Translations under genes and position numbers: made by a program | Virus genome (UHGV): UHGV-0289694 | Direction: 5' to 3' (one strand) | DNA length: 25,018 nucleotides | DNA from: a virus | The notes under the pieces: model-generated | Database searches by the model: none | What the model was told of the DNA's origin: nothing | Seen by the model: the letters and a program-made list of their open reading frames with translations, nothing else | Shown here: piece by piece, positions 2,936 through 13,750 of the stretch | How positions within the stretch are numbered: the stretch's first letter is position 1 | How the letters are laid out: each line of letters begins with the position of its first letter

Positions 2936-3568
2936 TTAGATACTCTTTATTACTTTGACTGCACGCCCAATAACTTCCACATCATCAGCAGAGCACTCGA
3001 AAGACGCTTCATCTTGATTTACTACAATTTTATTGCCGGGAATCCGCATGATTTTTGCAATAATAATCATTCCATCAATATTGATAAGCCAGAATCCATT
3101 GCTGACTTGTTTAACTGATTTATCGATGAGATAACAATCAGTAGGGGTTTCTAAGAACATCGATTCTTCATAATCTGCAGGTAATATGCTGTGGTCTAGG
3201 AAAATCTCTTCATCAATACTGAGTTGCCCATTTTCCAAGGTTCCTTTAGGAATAGATGGAGTTATGAGTTTGGATAACGGTTTAATTGCTTGTTTGTTCT
3301 CGTTATGAGATCTTTTCTCAGACTCGTATCCTTCTTTCATGCTTCCCTGTCCTGTGGCTAACCAAAGTAACGAAACACCGGTTTCTAGTGCACACTGAAT
3401 TATCCAGTCAGCAGGAAAGCTGTCACGTAACACTCTGTTTGCCATAGTACTTTTTGAGACATTCAGGTGCTCGCTTAATGCCTGCTTAGTTGTGAATCCA
3501 TAAGCCTTAAGCAGCCTCTCAATAGCTGCCTTACCTCCCGTATCGGAACCCATTCTGATGTTTAACAT
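2936..3568 (-). CDS. cI: Immunity repressor CI, 186-type (N-terminal HTH plus C-terminal domain)
   Basis: 210 aa; N-terminal GGKAAIERLLKAYGFTTKQALSEHLNVSKSTMANRV resembles the phage CI repressor N-terminal HTH domain; immediately upstream of int on the same strand and divergent from apl/cII. GGAG Shine-Dalgarno 8 nt before the ATG at 3568. Confidence 0.85.
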   Translation of the reverse strand: MLNIRMGSDTGGKAAIERLLKAYGFTTKQALSEHLNVSKSTMANRVLRDSFPADWIIQCALETGVSLLWLATGQGSMKEGYESEKRSHNENKQAIKPLSKLITPSIPKGTLENGQLSIDEEIFLDHSILPADYEESMFLETPTDCYLIDKSVKQVSNGFWLINIDGMIIIAKIMRIPGNKIVVNQDEASFECSADDVEVIGRAVKVIKSI

Positions 3569-6063: not shown

Positions 6064-6917
6064 GCACCATCCTGAAATGGGCGGGAAATAAAACCGCCAT
6101 TATGTTCGAACTGAAAAAACATCTTCCTGCTGGTCCGCGACTGGTTGAACCTTTCGCGGGTTCCTGTGCAGTGATGATGGAGACGGATTACCCCAGCTAT
6201 CTTGTTGCGGATATTAATCCTGATTTAATCAACCTCTATAAAAAGGTTGCTGCTGATTGTGAGGCGTTTATATCTCGTGCCAGAGCTTTATTTGAGGAAG
6301 CAAACAGAGAGGTGGCTTATTACAACATAAGGCAGGAGTTTAATTACTCCACTGAAATTACTGATTTCATGAAAGCGGTATATTTTCTGTATCTCAATCG
6401 TCACGGTTACCGTGGTTTATGTCGCTATAACAAGAGCGGGCATTTCAACATTCCCTACGGTAATTATAAAAATCCGTATTTCCCTGAAAAAGAAATTCGC
6501 GCATTTGCAGAAAAAGCCCAGCGAGCAACGTTTATCTGCGCCAGCTTTGATGAAACGCTGGCGATGTTGAAGGCGGGGGATGTGGTGTATTGCGATCCGC
6601 CGTATGACGGTACGTTTTCCGGCTATCACACTGATGGTTTCACTGAAGATGACCAGTATCACCTGGCATCCGTTCTTGAACATCGGTCATCAGAAGGACA
6701 TCCGGTCATTGTTTCTAACAGTGACACATCCCTGATCCGTTCGCTGTATCGCAATTTTACTCACCACTATATCAAGGTAAAACGCAGCATCGGTGTGGCA
6801 GCTGGCGAGGGTAAATCAGCAACAGAAATCATTGCTGTTTCCGGGCCGCGCTGCTGGGTGGGATTTGATTATTCGCGTGGCGTGGATAGTTCTGCCGTGT
6901 ACGGAGTACGTGCATGA
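6060..6917 (+). CDS. dam: DNA adenine methyltransferase (Dam-like, N6-adenine)
   Basis: N-terminal ILKWAGNK...EPFAGSCAV (AdoMet-binding motif I) and the DPPY catalytic motif ([10 protein letters not shown]); GGAGG RBS; ATGA overlaps with TraR-like upstream and gene A downstream. Confidence 0.9.
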
Positions 6918-9307
6918 GCCATGCCGATATGAACAACTGCTGCGGCTTTAACGAGGTTGCCGCAGCGTTCTCATGGAACAGCCCGAAAAAGGCCATTAAC
7001 CCTTATCTGGACCCGGCGGAAGTTGCGCCGGTTTCTGCGCTTTCAAACCTGATCACTCTGTACGCTGCCGATAACGAGCAGGAACAGTTGCGCCGCGAGG
7101 CACTGAGTGATCAGGTCTGGGAGCGTTATTTTTTTAATGAATCACGTGATCCTGTCCAGCACGAAATGGAGCAGGATAAGCTCATTAGCCGGGCAAAGCT
7201 GGCGCATGAGCAGCAGCGTTTTAATCCGGATATGGTCATTCTGGCGGACGTCAACGCCCAGCCTTCTCATATCAGCAAGCCGCTTATGCAACGTATTGAA
7301 TACTTCAGCAGCCTGGGCAGGCCAAAGGCTTATTCCCGCTATTTACGTGAGACGATTAAGCCATGTCTGGAACGACTGGAGCATGTACGCGACAGCCAGC
7401 TATCTGCATCTTTTCGTTTTATGGCAAGCCATGTAGGGCTGGACGGCCTGCTGATCCTGCCTGAAATGAGTCAGGATCAGGTGAAACGCCTGTCTACCCT
7501 TGTCGCTGCGCATATGAGCATGTGCCTTGATGCAGCTTGTGGTGATTTGTATGCCACCGATGACGTTAAGCCAGAAGAAATCCGCAAGACATGGGAAAAG
7601 GTGGCAGCGGAAACCCTGCGTCTGGATGTCATCCCGCCTGCGTTTGAGCAACTCCGTCGGAAAAGAAACCGCCGTAAACCCGTGCCCTATGAACTCATTC
7701 CGGGTTCGCTGGCGCGTATGTTGTGCGCCGACTGGTGGTACCGGAAATTATGGAAAATGCGTTGCGAATGGCGGGAAGAGCAGTTGCGTGCTGTCTGCCT
7801 GGTCAGCAAAAAAGCATCTCCCTATGTCAGCTATGAAGCCGTGATGCATAAACGTGAGCAGCGCCGCAAGTCACTGGAGTTTTTCCGTTCTCATGAACTG
7901 GTGAACGAAGAGGGCGACACGCTGGATATGGAAGACGTGGTAAACGCCAGCAGCAGCAACCCGGCGCACCGCCGCAATGAGATGATGGCCTGTGTTAAAG
8001 GTCTGGAGCTTATCGCGGAAATGCGCGGTGACTGCGCCGTTTTCTACACCATTACCTGTCCGTCACGTTTCCATTCCACGCTCAATAACGGCAGACCAAA
8101 CCCAACCTGGACAAATGCGACGGTAAGACAAAGCAGCGATTATCTGGTCGGCATGTTTGCTGCATTTCGTAAGGCGATGCACAAAGCCGGGTTGCGCTGG
8201 TATGGCGTGCGGGTGGCTGAGCCGCATCATGACGGTACAGTTCACTGGCACCTGTTGTGTTTCATGCGCAAAAAAGACCGCCGCGCCATTACTGCATTGT
8301 TGCGTAAATTTGCCATCCGTGAAGACCGCGAGGAACTGGGTAATAACACTGGTCCACGCTTTAAATCTGAGCTGATAAACCCGCGCAAAGGAACGCCGAC
8401 AAGCTACATCGCGAAATACATCAGTAAGAACATTGACGGGCGTGGTCTGGCTGGCGAGATCAGCAAGGAAACGGGTAAATCCCTGCGTGATAACGCTGAA
8501 TACGTTAATGCCTGGGCGTCTCTGCATCGTGTTCAGCAATTCCGCTTCTTTGGCATTCCGGGGCGTCAGGCTTACCGTGAACTGCGATTGCTGGCTGGTC
8601 AGGCGGCAAGGCAACAGGGTGACAAAAAAGCAGGTGCGCCGGTACTGGATAACCCGCGCCTTGATGCCATTCTGGCTGCAGCTGATGCTGGTTGCTATGC
8701 CACCTACATCATGAAGCAGGGCGGCGTACTGGTTCCCCGTAAATATCACCTCATCAGAACCGCTTATGAAATCAACGAAGAGCCGACCGCCTATGGCGAT
8801 CACAGTATTCGTATTTATGGCATCTGGTCACCCATTGCAGAGGGCAAGATCTGCACTCATGCAGTGAAGTGGAAAATGGTTCGTAAGGCCGTTGACGTTC
8901 AGGAGGCGGCAGCCGACCAGGGCGCTTGCGCCCCTTGGACTCGTGGCAATAACTGTCCCCCTGTTGAAAATTTGAACCAGACAGGGGGGGAGCTGCCCGA
9001 TATTAAAACCATGAATGAGCAGGAACTGCAGGATTACCTACACAATATGGGCCAGAAGGAACGCCGGGAGCTGACAGCCAGGTTGAGACTGGTAAAACCG
9101 AAGCGGAAAAAAGCATACATACAGAGTATTTCGGAGCAACAGCGCCTGCAGCTTGAGGCAGAACTCAGCTCCCGGGGATTTAATGCAAGCGATGCTGAAG
9201 TGGATCTACTTTTACGTGGCGGCAGCATTCCGTCAGGTGCCGGGCTGCGTATTTTTTACCGCAAACACCGGCTGCAGGAAGATGACAAATGGCGGCAGTG
9301 GTACTGA
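6914..9307 (+). CDS. A: Rolling-circle replication initiator (P2 gpA-like HUH endonuclease)
   Basis: 797 aa; HUH-type motif VHWHLLCF and active-site tyrosine motif [12 protein letters not shown]; size and position match P2 A / 186 A. Confidence 0.9.
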
Positions 9308-9386
9308 CAGCAAGGCTTTAACAATTCATGCTCTTAACGACTCTGCGCCAGAGTGTTCTCATTGACGGATAAAAAATATTTTACAT

Positions 9387-9422
9387 TTGAATACCAGGGG
9401 TGTACTGTATATATATACAGTA
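9387..9422 (+). promoter_or_regulatory. SOS-regulated promoter: -35 TTGAAT, 17-nt spacer, -10 TATATA, overlapped by a perfect LexA box TACTGTATATATATACAGTA (9403-9422)
   Basis: The 20-mer is the palindromic consensus LexA operator (CTGT-N8-ACAG) and covers the -10 hexamer. A second palindrome GTATGCATGCATAC follows at 9420-9433. Confidence 0.75.
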
Positions 9423-9469
9423 TGCATGCATACAGCTATCGTGTGTCCGTGGTCGTGATAGGAGGGAAG

Positions 9470-9658
9470 ATGCAGGACTATCTTTTGGAGTCGTTGAAGC
9501 TCCAGCGCATTGATTTTTTTATTAAGCTTGTAGCGGCTAGTGAGTGTAACGACGAAGAAAAGCGGCTGGCTATCCAGTGGGTTTCGGAGTTGACCGATGA
9601 GCTTATGGCGAAGATTCGCGCTCATGAATACAACCGCTCAATGGATCTTCCTGGTTAG
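9470..9658 (+). CDS. Small SOS-controlled protein, possibly a Tum-like antirepressor
   Basis: 62 aa; GGAGGGA RBS; first ORF downstream of the LexA-boxed promoter. 186-type phages carry a LexA-repressed tum gene at this map position, but I did not recognise Tum or DinI sequence similarity. Confidence 0.4.
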   Translation: MQDYLLESLKLQRIDFFIKLVAASECNDEEKRLAIQWVSELTDELMAKIRAHEYNRSMDLPG

Positions 9659-9799
9659 TTTTTCAAAGCTGAAAACAACCGAGTGAAAGTTACGACGCTT
9701 GAACTTTTAACTTGGGTTACAATCAGAACACTCGTTTTCGTTCACAAACGAACCTGCCATACCCTAATGTGGTAATGGCGTTCAATTTTTACTAAATGG

Positions 9800-10360
9800 T
9801 TGCAAATGCTTGTTATGAATCATGTAATGTTAGATATAGAAACATTGGATGTTGAAAAAACGGCTTATATCCTTTCGGTTGGTGCGGCTTTCTTCGTGCC
9901 GGAGACTGGCGAGGTTGGTCCGGGTTTCTATCAAGTTATTTCGCTTGATCATGAACAAGCAGGCAGAACCATTGCCCCCTCCACTGTAAAGTGGTGGATG
10001 TATCAAAGTTCTGAAGCTAAAAACGAAAATTTTGGTGGCACTAAGGACCTTTTAGACGTTCTGAATGAATTTGTGGCGTTTGTTCTTCATAATCGTAATG
10101 GCCGAGTAAAAGTGTGGGGAAACGGGAAAGAGTTCGACTGCACTATCATGCATCATGCCCTGTCACAGGCAGGTCTGGAGTGCCCATGGTCATTCAGAGA
10201 TACTCTTGACGTCAGAACCATCTTAGCGCTTGGTGAAAGCAAAGGAATTTTTTCTCATGCTGACAAAAAGTTCACTGGCATCAGGCACACAGCATTCGAT
10301 GATGTTTTATTTCAGATCGCACTGGTTTCTCATATCTATATGAATTTAAATAAAAAATAA
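9800..10360 (+). CDS. DnaQ-like DEDDh 3'-5' exonuclease (start may be at 9815 or 9827)
   Basis: Exo I motif MLDIETLD (D-x-E), Exo II WGNGKEFDCTIM, Exo III HTAFDDV (H-x4-D); ~180 aa single-domain protein; lower GC than phage core genes. Confidence 0.8.
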   Translation: MQMLVMNHVMLDIETLDVEKTAYILSVGAAFFVPETGEVGPGFYQVISLDHEQAGRTIAPSTVKWWMYQSSEAKNENFGGTKDLLDVLNEFVAFVLHNRNGRVKVWGNGKEFDCTIMHHALSQAGLECPWSFRDTLDVRTILALGESKGIFSHADKKFTGIRHTAFDDVLFQIALVSHIYMNLNKK

Positions 10361-10375
10361 ATATAGGACTTAGCT

Positions 10376-11287
10376 ATGGATTGCTTAGATGTAACCAATT
10401 GGACTGAGCTAGATGTTTTCGCACAATATCCTGTTGGTGCTCGCTCTAAGGCATTGGTTATTTCCCCTGATGTAGCACCCCATGGTATCAAAGCATCGTG
10501 GCCGTATCTTTTTAAGAGAAGTATTAAAAAGTATCCAGATCAATTTTGGTGTGAGATCGTTGCCTACAGGATTGGATTGAAGCTTGGTTTTGATGTCCCC
10601 AAAGCAGTTCCATCGGTAAAGACTAATGATTTGGGGCATACGTTTTGCGGGGCCCTCATTGAGTGGTTTCATCATAAAGATTATGAGAAATTTGCTCCCG
10701 CTGGTGATTACTTTGTCCGAAGAGATCCAAATTTTGATCGCGAGAAAGGAGCTCAGCATTCCCTTGAAGGGCTGAGGATTATCGCGAAAGCTCTTAAAGT
10801 TGACTATGTTGAGTGGTTGGAGGACATGGCTCTCTTTGACGCTGTGATAGGTAATACAGATAGACATCAAGAAAATTGGGGGTTTGTCTTTTCACCTTTA
10901 GCCAGCGAGTGTCAGCTTGCACCATTTTTCGATAATGGTACGAGCTTATGTTACGAACGCTTTCCGGAGCATGTTGCCGATTGGACCGATCATAGACTCA
11001 GGGAGCATGTTGGCCGGGGAAGGCATCATTTGCGTAAGACTCTGGGCAAAGATGAGTATCAGAGATTAGGTCATTTAGAGTTCATCAAAGAACTTTGTGA
11101 TAAAAAAGAAGCATTAAAACAGCGGGTAGCTGAAAAACTGGCTCTTTTGAACCATGATTTTTGGGAGTCAACTTTTGCGGAGTTGACGGAAATAAACTGC
11201 CCTGTTCCGCTGACTAGAGAACGTGCTGCATGGATTGTTCGTGTAACAAACATGCGTATTGAACTGATTAAAGGTGTTACTTCATGA
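10376..11287 (+). CDS. HipA-like Ser/Thr kinase core (HipT-like, lacking the HipA N-terminal subdomain)
   Basis: P-loop-like PVGARSKALV (cf. HipA VAGAQEKTAL), catalytic motif VIGNTDRHQEN (cf. HipA GATDGHAKN; Asp at nt 10859), Mg-binding LAPFFDNG (cf. HipA TPFYD); 303 aa; 15-nt gap after the exonuclease gene. Confidence 0.8.
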   Translation: MDCLDVTNWTELDVFAQYPVGARSKALVISPDVAPHGIKASWPYLFKRSIKKYPDQFWCEIVAYRIGLKLGFDVPKAVPSVKTNDLGHTFCGALIEWFHHKDYEKFAPAGDYFVRRDPNFDREKGAQHSLEGLRIIAKALKVDYVEWLEDMALFDAVIGNTDRHQENWGFVFSPLASECQLAPFFDNGTSLCYERFPEHVADWTDHRLREHVGRGRHHLRKTLGKDEYQRLGHLEFIKELCDKKEALKQRVAEKLALLNHDFWESTFAELTEINCPVPLTRERAAWIVRVTNMRIELIKGVTS

Positions 11288-11988
11288 CTATCTTAATAGA
11301 AAACATTCCCATGCCCAGTAGGCTCTTACTGACATGGCAACCGGTTGACGGAGGCTCTCGCTATGTCGTTGGTGAGCTTCTTCAAGATGAGTCTGAAGGC
11401 TACGAGTTTAATTATCTTACTGATAGCAAAGATTTTGCTAAAGCTAGGGATAACGGCTTTCGCGGTTTTCCTGCTTTTGATATAAAAGTTGCGACTCATC
11501 GCAAAGACGTTATGCAAACCTTTTCAAGAAGGTTACCCTCCAGGAAAAGAGAAGATTTTGACGATTACTTGCTGACGTTTCGTCTTCCTGCTGATTTTAG
11601 AGAGAATGACTTCGTTTTGCTCGCATGTACTGGCGGAAAAGTTGCTAGTGATGGTTTTTATTTTGTCCCAGACTTGTCTTCTGTTCGGCCACCTTTCGAT
11701 TACGTCATGGAGGTCGCTGGAACGAGGCACATGATCAAGGAAGGGCGTCTAGCGCTTGATGAGATATCAATTGGTGATGAAGTCATATTGCGGAATGAAG
11801 ATACCAATACGGTTGATCCGCTGGCCATATTGGTTACGAAAAACGACAATCATCTCGGATATGTCAACAAGGCATTGTGCGCCGCATTACGTGATCTAAG
11901 TAAAAACCATGATGTCAGTGGAGTGGTCGTACGTAAAAATGGCTCTTCGGATAGGCCTTTGATTTATGCAAAAGTATCCGTTCGGTGA
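11284..11988 (+). CDS. Two-domain protein: HipA N-terminal-like (HipS-like) domain fused to a HIRAN-like domain
   Basis: ATGA start/stop overlap with the kinase gene. N-terminal LLLTWQPVDGGSRYVVGELL...FSRRLP...LLACTGGKVASDGFYFVP parallels HipA residues 1-100 (KLVTWMNNQRVGEL...FDNLLPD...IGRDSVGAVTLIP). C-terminal DEVILRNEDTNTVDPLAILVTKNDNHLGYVNKALCAALRDL...VSGVVV fits the HIRAN pattern (L-x-L-x-R-E-x-x-N-x-x-D-x-x-A-I-x-V ... G-Y/H-hydrophobic ... A-x-x-L-A-x-x-hydrophobic-D). Domain calls are from motif memory, not a search. Confidence 0.6.
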   Translation: MTILIENIPMPSRLLLTWQPVDGGSRYVVGELLQDESEGYEFNYLTDSKDFAKARDNGFRGFPAFDIKVATHRKDVMQTFSRRLPSRKREDFDDYLLTFRLPADFRENDFVLLACTGGKVASDGFYFVPDLSSVRPPFDYVMEVAGTRHMIKEGRLALDEISIGDEVILRNEDTNTVDPLAILVTKNDNHLGYVNKALCAALRDLSKNHDVSGVVVRKNGSSDRPLIYAKVSVR

Positions 11989-12089
11989 AGCATGTTTATT
12001 CATGCTTGCCGGTAATAAGGTGCTCTTGATTTAGTGCATGTCTATGCCGCATAAATCCGCATGATCGTTTGATGATCGTTTTAGCTGAG

Positions 12090-12117
12090 GCCCGCCAGGA
12101 ATGGCGGGCTTTTGCTT
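12090..12117 (+). terminator. Rho-independent terminator ending the accessory operon
   Basis: GCCCGCCA-GGAA-TGGCGGGC (8-bp GC-rich stem) followed by TTTTGCTT. Confidence 0.65.
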
Positions 12118-12158
12118 ATGTCATGCAGGCGCATGAAAACTGCTACATAAAGCGGGCA

Positions 12159-12177
12159 GGCGTGGCGGGGATACGAG
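12159..12177. other. Putative cos site (cohesive-end sequence)
   Basis: GGCGTGGCGGGGATACGAG; the first 13 nt match the 186/P2 cohesive-end sequence as I recall it (GGCGTGGCGGGGAAAGCAT), and the location between the A-side accessory region and Q is as expected. From memory only. Confidence 0.35.
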
Positions 12178-12382
12178 CGCGCACTCTGGGGTAAAATGGT
12201 CAAAATCCACCGCAATTTACTGGCTCAGGAACGTAGTTAGTTTTGTAGGTATAAACGGCTCTCACGTTAGATAGGCATGCAGGATGTGTTAAATCGTTGT
12301 GATGAAGTTAACGGTGACTGAGACAGTTTAGGTCTAAGATATAACTTCTGGGTTAGTTAAAAATTGGAATAGTAAGACATTT

Positions 12383-12679
12383 ATGAAAACTACTTATAGC
12401 TATGATTTTCAATATATGCGCAAAGGTCAGGATCGCCCTGATGATGATGGAGAGGTTGTAGGGTGTAATTCAGAAGACAACTCGCTTTTGATGCTTCCAA
12501 ATGTGGGAGACTACGTAACAATTACGAATAAGGGTGGGCGTGCTCAATTTGATGGGCGGGTGAAAACAAGGCTTTTCAATTACCTACGCATTGCTGATGG
12601 TCATGTTCATTGCTCCATTTGCATTGTAGTTGAGGAAGTTGATATGGACTCCGTATGGGGGGCACTAATTAAAGAATAA
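12383..12679 (+). CDS. Hypothetical small protein between cos and Q
   Basis: 98-aa ORF, AT-rich, weak RBS, followed by a terminator hairpin; no motif recognised. It contains Asp-rich PDDDGEVVGC and a C-terminal HCSIC pair. Confidence 0.45.
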   Translation: MKTTYSYDFQYMRKGQDRPDDDGEVVGCNSEDNSLLMLPNVGDYVTITNKGGRAQFDGRVKTRLFNYLRIADGHVHCSICIVVEEVDMDSVWGALIKE

Positions 12680-12685
12680 TAGAAT

Positions 12686-12701
12686 GCCTGCAAATGCAGG
12701 C
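12686..12701. terminator. Bidirectional terminator hairpin between the 98-aa ORF and gene Q
   Basis: GCCTGC-AAAT-GCAGGC palindrome with T-rich flanks on both strands, between convergent genes. Confidence 0.5.
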
Positions 12702-12709
12702 GCTTTAAT

Positions 12710-13750
12710 TTACTCAGAAATATCTAAGTTGTAAGATTCAAAGCAAATCACTTTTTCACCTAGCCAGTTGTTCAGCTCTTGCAGCCGCTTTTGCAGTGGC
12801 ATCAGTTCATTGCGGACAAACACTCGACTAGCCTTCTCCACATCCCCAAACCCCCCGACATTATTAGGCATTATCCCCATCATTTGTGGCGGCACACGAT
12901 GCGCCGCCATCATGTCGTCCCGGCTCACGTTCTTGATATTCAGGAACTCATCCTTCGCCGCCACTTCTGACAACGGGATAATCTGAAGCCCGTCCTTTTT
13001 ACCGTTAGGCGAGTACATAAACAGGTTACGGAAGTTACCAGGACCTTTGGCGCTTTTCATCGCATTGCGGAGGTTGTTCACATCCTCCTGGTTCTGCGCA
13101 GCATCGGTCATGTACATGATGAAGCCTGCATGACTGCCGTTAATGTAATACTTGCGGCGGAACAGCGTGGCGGACTCGTTGAGCAGAGCTGACGGAATGG
13201 CAGAAAGATAACCGGGCAGGCCGTAGATCTCCTGGTTAATGTCCGGTTCCATCAGATGAAAAATGCTGCCTTTCGTGAACTGATACGGCTGGGTTGTCAT
13301 ACCGTATTGCACAAACCAGTAGGTATCCAGGTCTAACCCGCGTCGGGTGTATTTTGCCAGTGCAGGCTCAAGGGCGATAACTTCACCGAAGCGGTTCGTG
13401 CGTTTCTCCAGGTAGGCGTTACCAAAAACCAGATAGTCCTGCACAAAACGCGAAAAAGCCTGCTGGCTGAGCAGCGGGTGAGGGATGTAGGTGCTGGTCA
13501 GAATGTTGCATTTCACTGCAATTGGTGAACTGTGATGCACGGCAGCGCGGAAGGTGCGCGCCAGTCCGTCAAAGCTGACGGGAGGCTCATACCAGCGATC
13601 TGTCTGTACGCATTCCACATAGTCCAGCAGTTCGCGGCGGTCAAGTACTGGAATGGGATCACCGAAGCTGAATGCTTCGGCTGAAGCTTGGCTTTTATGC
13701 TGGATCTGGTTCGTCGCCGCAGCGCATTTTTTTTTACTCTTTCCCATCAA
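12710..13750 (-). CDS. Q: Portal protein (P2 gpQ-like)
   Basis: 346 aa; size, position downstream of the large terminase on the minus strand with start/stop overlap, and overall resemblance to P2 Q. Confidence 0.9.
   Translation of the reverse strand: MMGKSKKKCAAATNQIQHKSQASAEAFSFGDPIPVLDRRELLDYVECVQTDRWYEPPVSFDGLARTFRAAVHHSSPIAVKCNILTSTYIPHPLLSQQAFSRFVQDYLVFGNAYLEKRTNRFGEVIALEPALAKYTRRGLDLDTYWFVQYGMTTQPYQFTKGSIFHLMEPDINQEIYGLPGYLSAIPSALLNESATLFRRKYYINGSHAGFIMYMTDAAQNQEDVNNLRNAMKSAKGPGNFRNLFMYSPNGKKDGLQIIPLSEVAAKDEFLNIKNVSRDDMMAAHRVPPQMMGIMPNNVGGFGDVEKASRVFVRNELMPLQKRLQELNNWLGEKVICFESYNLDISE

Follow-up and report, generated by a model that had tools for sequence, protein, structure and literature searches.

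Our study examined a putative LexA operator and the 62-amino-acid (aa) open reading frame (ORF) behind it in UHGV virus genome UHGV-0289694, of which the whole stretch of 25 018 nucleotides (nt) was analysed and is referred to here as the window. The operator, TACTGTATATATATACAGTA, is a perfect 20/20 consensus palindrome at 9403–9422, and it starts 96 nt past the stop codon of its upstream neighbour, the replication gene A (6914–9307, + strand; PF05840, E value 3.8e-128). The ORF, which we read as tumA (9470–9658, + strand), encodes a homologue of the N-terminal half of coliphage 186's antirepressor Tum and is followed on the same strand by a cargo operon of exonuclease, kinase and HIRAN-domain genes and by a further ORF of 98 aa, before the portal gene Q is reached in convergent orientation at 12710. 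Judged by its gene content, the window is a P2-family prophage carrying a 186-type lysis–lysogeny switch, whose genes CI, CII (CP76), Fil and Int were identified with Pfam; a Dam-like methylase is also among the genes of the window, and the Int, CI, CII, A, portal and terminase ORFs are all open. The box sits at the left edge of the variable region between genes A and Q, which is where coliphage 186 has p95 and tum. The explanation we favour, with a probability of about 0.8 for the whole of it, is that LexA controls a TumA switch through a promoter designated P_tum and that transcription from P_tum likely reads through into the cargo.

The LexA operator and the predicted P_tum promoter

The LexA consensus used was of the E. 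coli type, with a CTGT-N8-ACAG core and the 20-nt form TACTG(TA)5CAGTA, and box quality is given as the number of mismatches to this consensus. The core occurs once in the 25-kb window, at TACTGTATATATATACAGTA, and none of 100 dinucleotide-preserving shuffles held a site with three or fewer mismatches to the 20-mer, which together place the box well above chance. Orthologous loci were collected by a single-protein scan, yielding 31 loci, which represent at least 15 Enterobacterales genera, or 32 loci when the window is counted. A LexA box was present at the same position in 32/32 loci, with the strict core in 27 and one core mismatch in 5; the CTGT and ACAG arms were kept across the set despite a variable spacer between them, and the copy in the window was the only one with zero mismatches. 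This confirmed the preliminary description, which had reported a perfect palindromic LexA operator in front of a 62-aa ORF.

Most tumA promoters have the form CTGT-N8-ACAGTGG-N8-ACAG, that is, two overlapping boxes of which the second is weaker. The ACAG of the second box was found at fixed spacing in 22/32 loci, where its left half is mostly GTGG. In the window, a possible and degenerate second half-box, CAGTATGCATGCATACAGCT, lies at 9418–9437 and overlaps the first by 5 nt; its right half is ACAG (9432–9435), and its left half is GTAT instead of CTGT. The function of this second site is doubtful, and from its sequence the first, perfect box alone looks functional here. Promoters of very high predicted LexA affinity have been reported to show undetectable basal expression and to fire in few cells (PMC2994835), and by analogy the consensus box would suggest tight repression and late induction of P_tum.

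The sequence of 9380–9470 reads TTTACATTTGAATACCAGGGGTG TACTGTATATATATACAGTA TGCATGCATACAGCTATCGTGTGTCCGTGGTCGTGAT AGGAGGG AAG ATG, in which AGGAGGG (9460–9466, + strand) is the Shine–Dalgarno sequence of tumA, conserved in relatives, and the distance from the box to tumA is 47 nt. The preliminary description had proposed a promoter of TTGAAT (9387–9392) and TATATA (9410–9415) at 17-nt spacing (9387–9415, + strand). Both hexamers are present and the box covers this −10, but neither is conserved in relatives, and TATATA lacks the final T at position −7, so that the two are probably not a functional pair. The likeliest promoter is instead TTTACA-17-TACTGT. Its predicted −10, TACTGT (9403–9408, + strand), was found by a relaxed promoter scan, forms the left arm of the LexA box and is homologous to the annotated −10 of 186 p95. 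The hexamer exactly 17 nt upstream of it is TTTACA in 25/32 loci and serves in the window as the predicted −35 (9380–9385, + strand). By sequence comparison, P_tum therefore most likely has the layout of 186 p95 and is its equivalent. The box overlaps the −10 of both predicted promoters, and with respect to P_tum the operator spans the −10 and the presumed start site.

The 62-aa ORF and the proposed lysis–lysogeny switch

The ORF runs from an ATG at 9470 to a stop codon at 9656–9658. Its product is 88–90 % identical to SopEPhi orf10 and Fels-2 STM2728 (88 % for STM2728), and it shares 88 % identity (53/60) with the 62-aa protein ECHS_RS04495 of DuoHS, a prophage of E. coli HS. The in-frame 'tum' deletion made in DuoHS removed ECHS_RS04495 (PMC12055606, supplementary methods), and the delta-tum and lexA(Ind-) mutants alike lost mitomycin C lysis and virion formation (PMC12055606). 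In Fels-2 and PSP3 the tum frame is split in two, and the upstream gene of PSP3 has antirepressor activity (PMC3121763); the PSP3 record lists a tumB next to a tumA described as 'similar to 5' end 186 tum; UV induction of prophage'. When the family of the ORF was compared with the N-terminal family of 186 Tum by hhalign, a match of 96.7 % probability was obtained (E value 4.4e-10) over residues 1–44 of each, and distant members of the ORF family, such as P0168, drift to Tum-like sequence. Furthermore, tumA is the first gene under the LexA-box promoter right after gene A, an order shared by 186, PSP3, Fels-2, SopEPhi and DuoHS. The suggestion that the ORF is a LexA-repressed, Tum-like antirepressor of a 186-type prophage is thus supported by a tested orthologue, by profile homology to Tum and by the 186-type CI, CII, Fil and Int genes.

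Comparison of the ORF with Pfam, NCBIfam and PADLOC returned nothing meaningful, and its match in PHROGs was to phrog_698, a family of unknown function. An AlphaFold2 model predicted a two-helix hairpin, with helices at residues 2–23 and 28–58, a conserved Cys26 in the turn and a predicted local distance difference test score of 87.8; a Foldseek search of this model against the PDB returned generic helical hairpins only (E value >1). Of 5426 complete E. coli genomes, 1228 had matches to the tumA region; their only annotation for the ORF is 'hypothetical protein', and one phage record names it a 'levan regulatory domain protein'. Our analysis gives a function to this widespread 'hypothetical protein' of 62 aa, which lacks a family model. 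Among E. coli relatives that carry this cargo the closest is E. coli N1420 (locus L004, 1562–1732), in which an earlier TAG shortens tumA to 56 aa.

The second half of Tum, the DinI-like sequence found elsewhere as tumB, was not detected anywhere in the window by tblastn. It is also absent in 13/31 relatives, and the occurrence of tumA without tumB at these 13 loci, across many genera, indicates that this is a stable arrangement.

The presumed target of TumA is the 186-type CI repressor (2936–3568, − strand), which matches PF07022 and PF16452, both of them Pfam domains of 186 CI. In an undamaged lysogen, a LexA dimer at 9403–9422 would block RNA polymerase at P_tum. DNA damage would activate RecA and lead to self-cleavage of LexA, upon which P_tum would fire and the 62-aa helical hairpin TumA would be made. 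By analogy with 186 Tum, TumA would then reversibly bind CI and take it off its operators, so that the lytic promoter would open and the prophage would be induced. With 186 Tum itself, CI is reversibly kept from binding to DNA (Shearwin 1998, summarised in PMC3121763). The LexA block, the damage-triggered cleavage and the synthesis of TumA are proposed because of the sequence, its conservation and the genetics of DuoHS, and we infer LexA binding at the box of the window, the transcription start, the contact between TumA and CI and the read-through into the cargo. The operator and antirepressor part of the switch is, in our judgement, very probable. It would explain how DNA-damaging agents such as quinolones or mitomycin C could induce the prophage.

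The cargo operon and the gap behind tumA

The cargo operon begins with a gene for a DEDD 3'–5' exonuclease, Rv2179c-like (9815–10360, + strand; PF16473, E value 8.5e-51). Its ORF is open from a TTG at 9800, and the ATG at 9815 appears to be the homologous start by comparison with the corresponding genes of loci L083 and L051; PDB sequences searched with the exonuclease in HMMER yielded nothing informative. The second gene encodes a HipI-like Ser/Thr kinase with a HipA_C domain (10376–11287, + strand; HipA_C, E value 6.3e-10; PADLOC PDC-M03A, 1.6e-34), the catalytic loop of which is intact, with DRHQENW and FDNG motifs that are invariant in the alignment. The start of the third gene overlaps the stop of the kinase gene, and its product is a HipN-like protein with a C-terminal HIRAN domain (11284–11988, + strand; HIRAN, E value 6.9e-8; PADLOC PDC-M03B, 5.8e-37). 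The kinase–HIRAN pair is of the hipIN type (Gerdes et al. 2021; PMC8262856), a DEDD nuclease is adjacent in HipA–HIRAN clusters of Actinobacteria (PMC11706625), and toxin–antitoxin or anti-phage activity has been predicted for such modules (PMC8262856, PMC11706625). Complete E. coli genomes (five or six) and several IMG/VR contigs have the same three genes behind tumA, at 94–99 % identity. The last co-directional gene is the 98-aa ORF of unknown function (12383–12679, + strand; phrog_12676, E value 4.8e-52), which follows the Hip operon after a gap of 394 nt and ends 6 nt before a strong, bidirectional intrinsic terminator at 12685–12702. This terminator is shared with the convergent gene Q and is the first downstream of P_tum.

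Between tumA and the exonuclease gene lies an untranslated leader (9659–9814, + strand), of 141 nt if counted to the TTG at 9800 and 156 nt if counted to the ATG at 9815. Homology to phages with tumA and tumB extends to about 9645 and so falls just short of the tumA stop, and the leader is 90 % conserved with that preceding the same cargo in E. coli N1420. These comparisons indicate that the gap travels with, and belongs to, the cargo module and not the tum module. A consensus scan of 9659–9814 found no intrinsic terminator and the predicted fold of 9640–9830 was no more stable than that of shuffles (z=−0.39), so that the earlier statement that no convincing terminator precedes the cargo operon holds. 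An Rfam E-value search of 9000–13000 returned no credible family.

One hairpin in the gap, at 9756–9781 with TTCAATTTTT behind it, was weighed as a possible terminator but discarded: it was not called by the consensus scan, the fold did not differ from shuffles, and the changes to its arms in N1420 are non-compensatory. A different element was seen in loci L057–L065, which carry modules of a fused type. Here, a 13-bp hairpin lies in the first ~45 nt past the tumA or tumB stop, with no T-run after it, and its arms differ by locus yet stay complementary (TTGCGGGCGGCAG/CTGCCGTCGGCAA in L057; ACACTACAGGTGA/TCACCTGTAGTGT in L062). An RNA processing or stability element and a recombination boundary are candidate explanations for it.

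With no intrinsic terminator detected before 12685–12702, read-through from P_tum into the cargo is most likely, at least in part. Part of the P_tum transcript would thus run on into the exonuclease–kinase–HIRAN–98-aa operon and make the cargo SOS-responsive. We consider co-induction of the cargo by this route to be plausible, with the balance tipping slightly in its favour. Of the cargo ORF bases in 28 related hotspots, 80 % lie in the same orientation as tumA; the gap only exceptionally contains a terminator-like hairpin, and a strong terminator follows the SOS genes in 2 loci only. The preliminary description had called such control an unusual regulatory input for a toxin-like module, which was an overstatement, as tisB, symE, hokE, dinJ-yafQ and yafNO are all LexA-regulated toxin modules of E. 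coli. Furthermore, according to the coliphage 186 record, the p95 transcript passes a partial terminator, t95a, into orf97, and the downstream gene of this SOS operon blocks infection when expressed. If the cargo does follow the SOS response, assays that use short 'native promoter' fragments and no DNA damage could misjudge the activity of hotspot systems, and SOS-inducing antibiotics would also alter how resistant lysogens are to phages or how much toxin they carry.

Comparison with other P2-type hotspots and known systems

The module of exonuclease, Hip kinase and HIRAN protein was found in at least four diverged lineages, between which the exonuclease is 39–63 % identical, and three of the lineages encode kinase and HIRAN as one fused protein of 547–552 aa. 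A scan with the kinase of Escherichia phage 899 recovered only loci that were already known. All copies of the module found in P2-family phages lie downstream of a LexA box, a few of them with one core mismatch. For copies that follow tum, the box is expected from position alone. Two independent types of P2-type phage, however, carry the module with a C repressor and Cox and without tum: phage 899 and its relatives (L051/L066; PV533660, 22800–25183) and the L083 type (L083, 3100–5622). Each has, between gene A and the exonuclease gene, a LexA box accompanied by a −35 of its own, and the stretch from box to exonuclease gene holds no ORF; the boxes are TACTGTGTATGTATACAGTA and TGCTGTATATAAAAACAGTC. 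Of the P2-type hotspots with other cargo, 68/74 were without a LexA box.

The contrast between 2/2 tum-less modules with a box and 6/74 hotspots with other cargo corresponds to ~1 % on a naive count, and as suggestive comparative evidence it speaks for co-induction of the cargo. Tentatively, and at slightly less than even odds, we propose that LexA control is a selected property of the exonuclease/Hip-kinase/HIRAN module and of some other P2-family cargo, and not an accident of adjacency to tum. If so, the kinase toxin would be made only with the SOS response on, whether through DNA damage to the host itself, prophage induction or an SOS-triggering phage, and the HIRAN protein and 3'–5' exonuclease would read or process 3' DNA ends and so decide whether the kinase fires. 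The 6/74 hotspots that have a LexA box but no Hip module, which include L144, L156, L177, L212 and L219, carry the box right after gene A and the other cargo directly behind it. Examples of this cargo include a 190-aa membrane protein accompanied by a protein of 158–173 aa, four genes of which one encodes a 645-aa ATPase-like protein, and a C5 methyltransferase together with an HNH-like protein. SOS-controlled hotspot cargo may be a wider phenomenon.

Some observations weigh against the explanation set out here, both for the switch and for the cargo. Pairwise BLASTP gave no alignment of the ORF with 186 Tum or with PSP3 TumA, and neither did PSP3 TumA align with 186 Tum, so that the link of the ORF to 186 Tum rests on profiles and position. 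The CI of the window is just 41 % identical to the CI of DuoHS (L043, 6701–7270, − strand), which makes the pairing of TumA with CI an extrapolation. The N-terminal DNA-binding (helix-turn-helix) part of CI is conserved far better between the two phages than the C-terminal part, and their TumA proteins are 88 % identical; this hints, as a guess from sequence, that TumA may act on the N-terminal domain of CI, or may not be immunity-specific. For the cargo, the gap is moderately richer in C than in G (C/G up to 1.9), and as it is untranslated, Rho could load there and termination is possible. The gap also holds a candidate weak, internal, sigma-70-like promoter, TTCACA-18-TAATGT (9741–9770, + strand), which was found by a relaxed scan with 5+3 matches, is nominally as good as P_tum and could give the cargo independent, constitutive expression. 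Finally, the association of box and module comes from two lineages only, and the control loci are phylogenetically non-independent.

These observations bear on the rival explanations to different degrees. The palindrome might be no LexA site at all but an AT-rich inverted repeat arisen by chance, or a hairpin that resembles a terminator for gene A. This would fit its composition and its position 96 nt behind the gene A stop, and a similar palindrome with flanking A- and T-runs, of terminator-like appearance, does exist in L195, an unrelated P2-type locus. The window's box has no flanking T-run, however, the shuffles never matched it, its arms are conserved in 32 loci despite the variable spacer, and its position is identical to that of the LexA site annotated for 186 p95, which leaves this reading scarcely credible. 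The palindrome in L195 (GACTGTATATATATACAGTC, ~6109–6128) matches the LexA core between an A-run and a T-run and is more like a bidirectional terminator hairpin; it cautions that not all palindromes of this type are LexA sites. Decay is a better, though still improbable, alternative, in which the box and ORF would be relics in a defective or non-inducible prophage and the ORF would no longer act as an antirepressor, for instance through the lack of its DinI-like partner or a mismatch between TumA and this CI. The missing tumB, the divergence of CI from that of DuoHS and the 56-aa tumA of the relative with the same cargo all speak for decay. On the other hand, the ORF is intact with a strong Shine–Dalgarno sequence, the box is perfect and undecayed, tumA stands without tumB at 13/31 loci of many genera, the upstream half of the PSP3 frame alone is reported to have antirepressor activity (PMC3121763), and the Int, CI, CII, A, portal and terminase ORFs are open.

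A more serious alternative concerns only the cargo. LexA and P_tum may control tumA alone, with transcripts ending in the gap through Rho or an unrecognized signal, and with the exonuclease, hipI and hipN genes expressed constitutively from a weak promoter of their own, as would be expected for a prophage defence or toxin–antitoxin module. This would agree with a gap that holds a candidate promoter of the nominal quality of P_tum together with C-rich stretches, and that is part of the cargo module and may bring its own signals; in addition, the fused-type modules have a perfect TATAAT ~40 nt upstream of the exonuclease gene, and hotspot systems are active on plasmids from 'native promoters' (PMC9122126). 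Against it, a stricter consensus scan found no promoter in the gap, the −35 of the candidate is degraded to TCCACA in N1420, and no intrinsic terminator was found there. Furthermore, in the two tum-less P2-type lineages a LexA box directly precedes the homologous module with no gene between, which is hard to explain if LexA is irrelevant to the module. Taken together, this evidence makes constitutive cargo expression possible, but clearly short of an even chance.

The LexA-controlled TumA switch itself is of an already known kind, represented by 186 p95/tum, by the tum of Fels-2 and PSP3, which is split in two, and by the genetically tested tum of DuoHS. In the coliphage 186 record, the order is −35, −10 (TACTGT), LexA site, tum, partial terminator t95a, orf97 and terminator t95b. 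The window resembles this in lying directly after gene A, in a −10 of TACTGT inside the LexA box, in the chain from LexA cleavage to antirepressor to inactivated CI and in an accessory gene downstream, which in 186 is reached by read-through. It differs in that the 146 aa of 186 Tum combine the antirepressor with a fused DinI-like half, whereas the antirepressor of the window stands alone at 62 aa, and in that the window has no t95a-like terminator and an exonuclease–kinase–HIRAN operon in place of orf97. Fels-2, SopEPhi (orf10/orf11) and DuoHS share with the window a TumA of 88–90 % identity and the same promoter and box, and PSP3 has the same layout of promoter and LexA box. In Fels-2, SopEPhi and DuoHS, however, the gene immediately behind is a separate DinI-like one of 77 aa, and PSP3 has the same pair, whereas the cargo of the window begins at the tumA stop. 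The boxes of these relatives also have 2–5 mismatches and a better second overlapping box, compared with the full consensus of the window.

Two overlapping SOS boxes are also a feature of colicin operators. Most tumA promoters are colicin-like in this respect; of the second box, the window retains the right half alone (GTAT...ACAG).

Among other phages, GfoA, GftA and FsoA of Gifsy-1, Gifsy-2 and Fels-1 and AntC of N15 are likewise small LexA-repressed proteins that inactivate a non-cleavable repressor (PMC3121763). They belong to different phage families, and the Gifsy operons have dinI first; the likeness seen is one of regulatory logic. The cargo resembles hipIN/HipL modules (PDC-M03) and the diDNase–HipA–HIRAN clusters of Actinobacteria (PMC11706625) in its HipA_C kinase, overlapping HIRAN gene and adjacent DEDD exonuclease. 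Unlike those modules, it lies in an enterobacterial P2-family hotspot, has an Rv2179c-like exonuclease and stands behind a LexA-controlled promoter. No LexA regulation of hipIN/PDC-M03 modules is described in PMC8262856, PMC11706625, PMC9122126 or PMC13586616, the latter two of which are surveys of P2-family hotspots that make no mention of LexA, SOS, tum or DinI, and our literature searches on LexA or SOS control of P2-hotspot cargo or PDC-M03 returned nothing relevant. The silence of the surveys suggests that SOS control may have been overlooked as a layer of prophage-borne defence. Two points were absent from the literature searched: in 186/Fels-2-like phages, the P2-family defence hotspot has the stop codon of a LexA-controlled gene as its starting point, and a LexA box is retained by some hotspot cargo even where tum is missing.

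A further exonuclease-like gene is present in the early operon of 186 upstream of gene A, where it is annotated as 'DNA polymerase exonuclease subunit' (L001, 1–475). The early-operon ORFs of the window that were scanned include no such gene, and the sole exonuclease found is the one after tumA, beside the Hip module.

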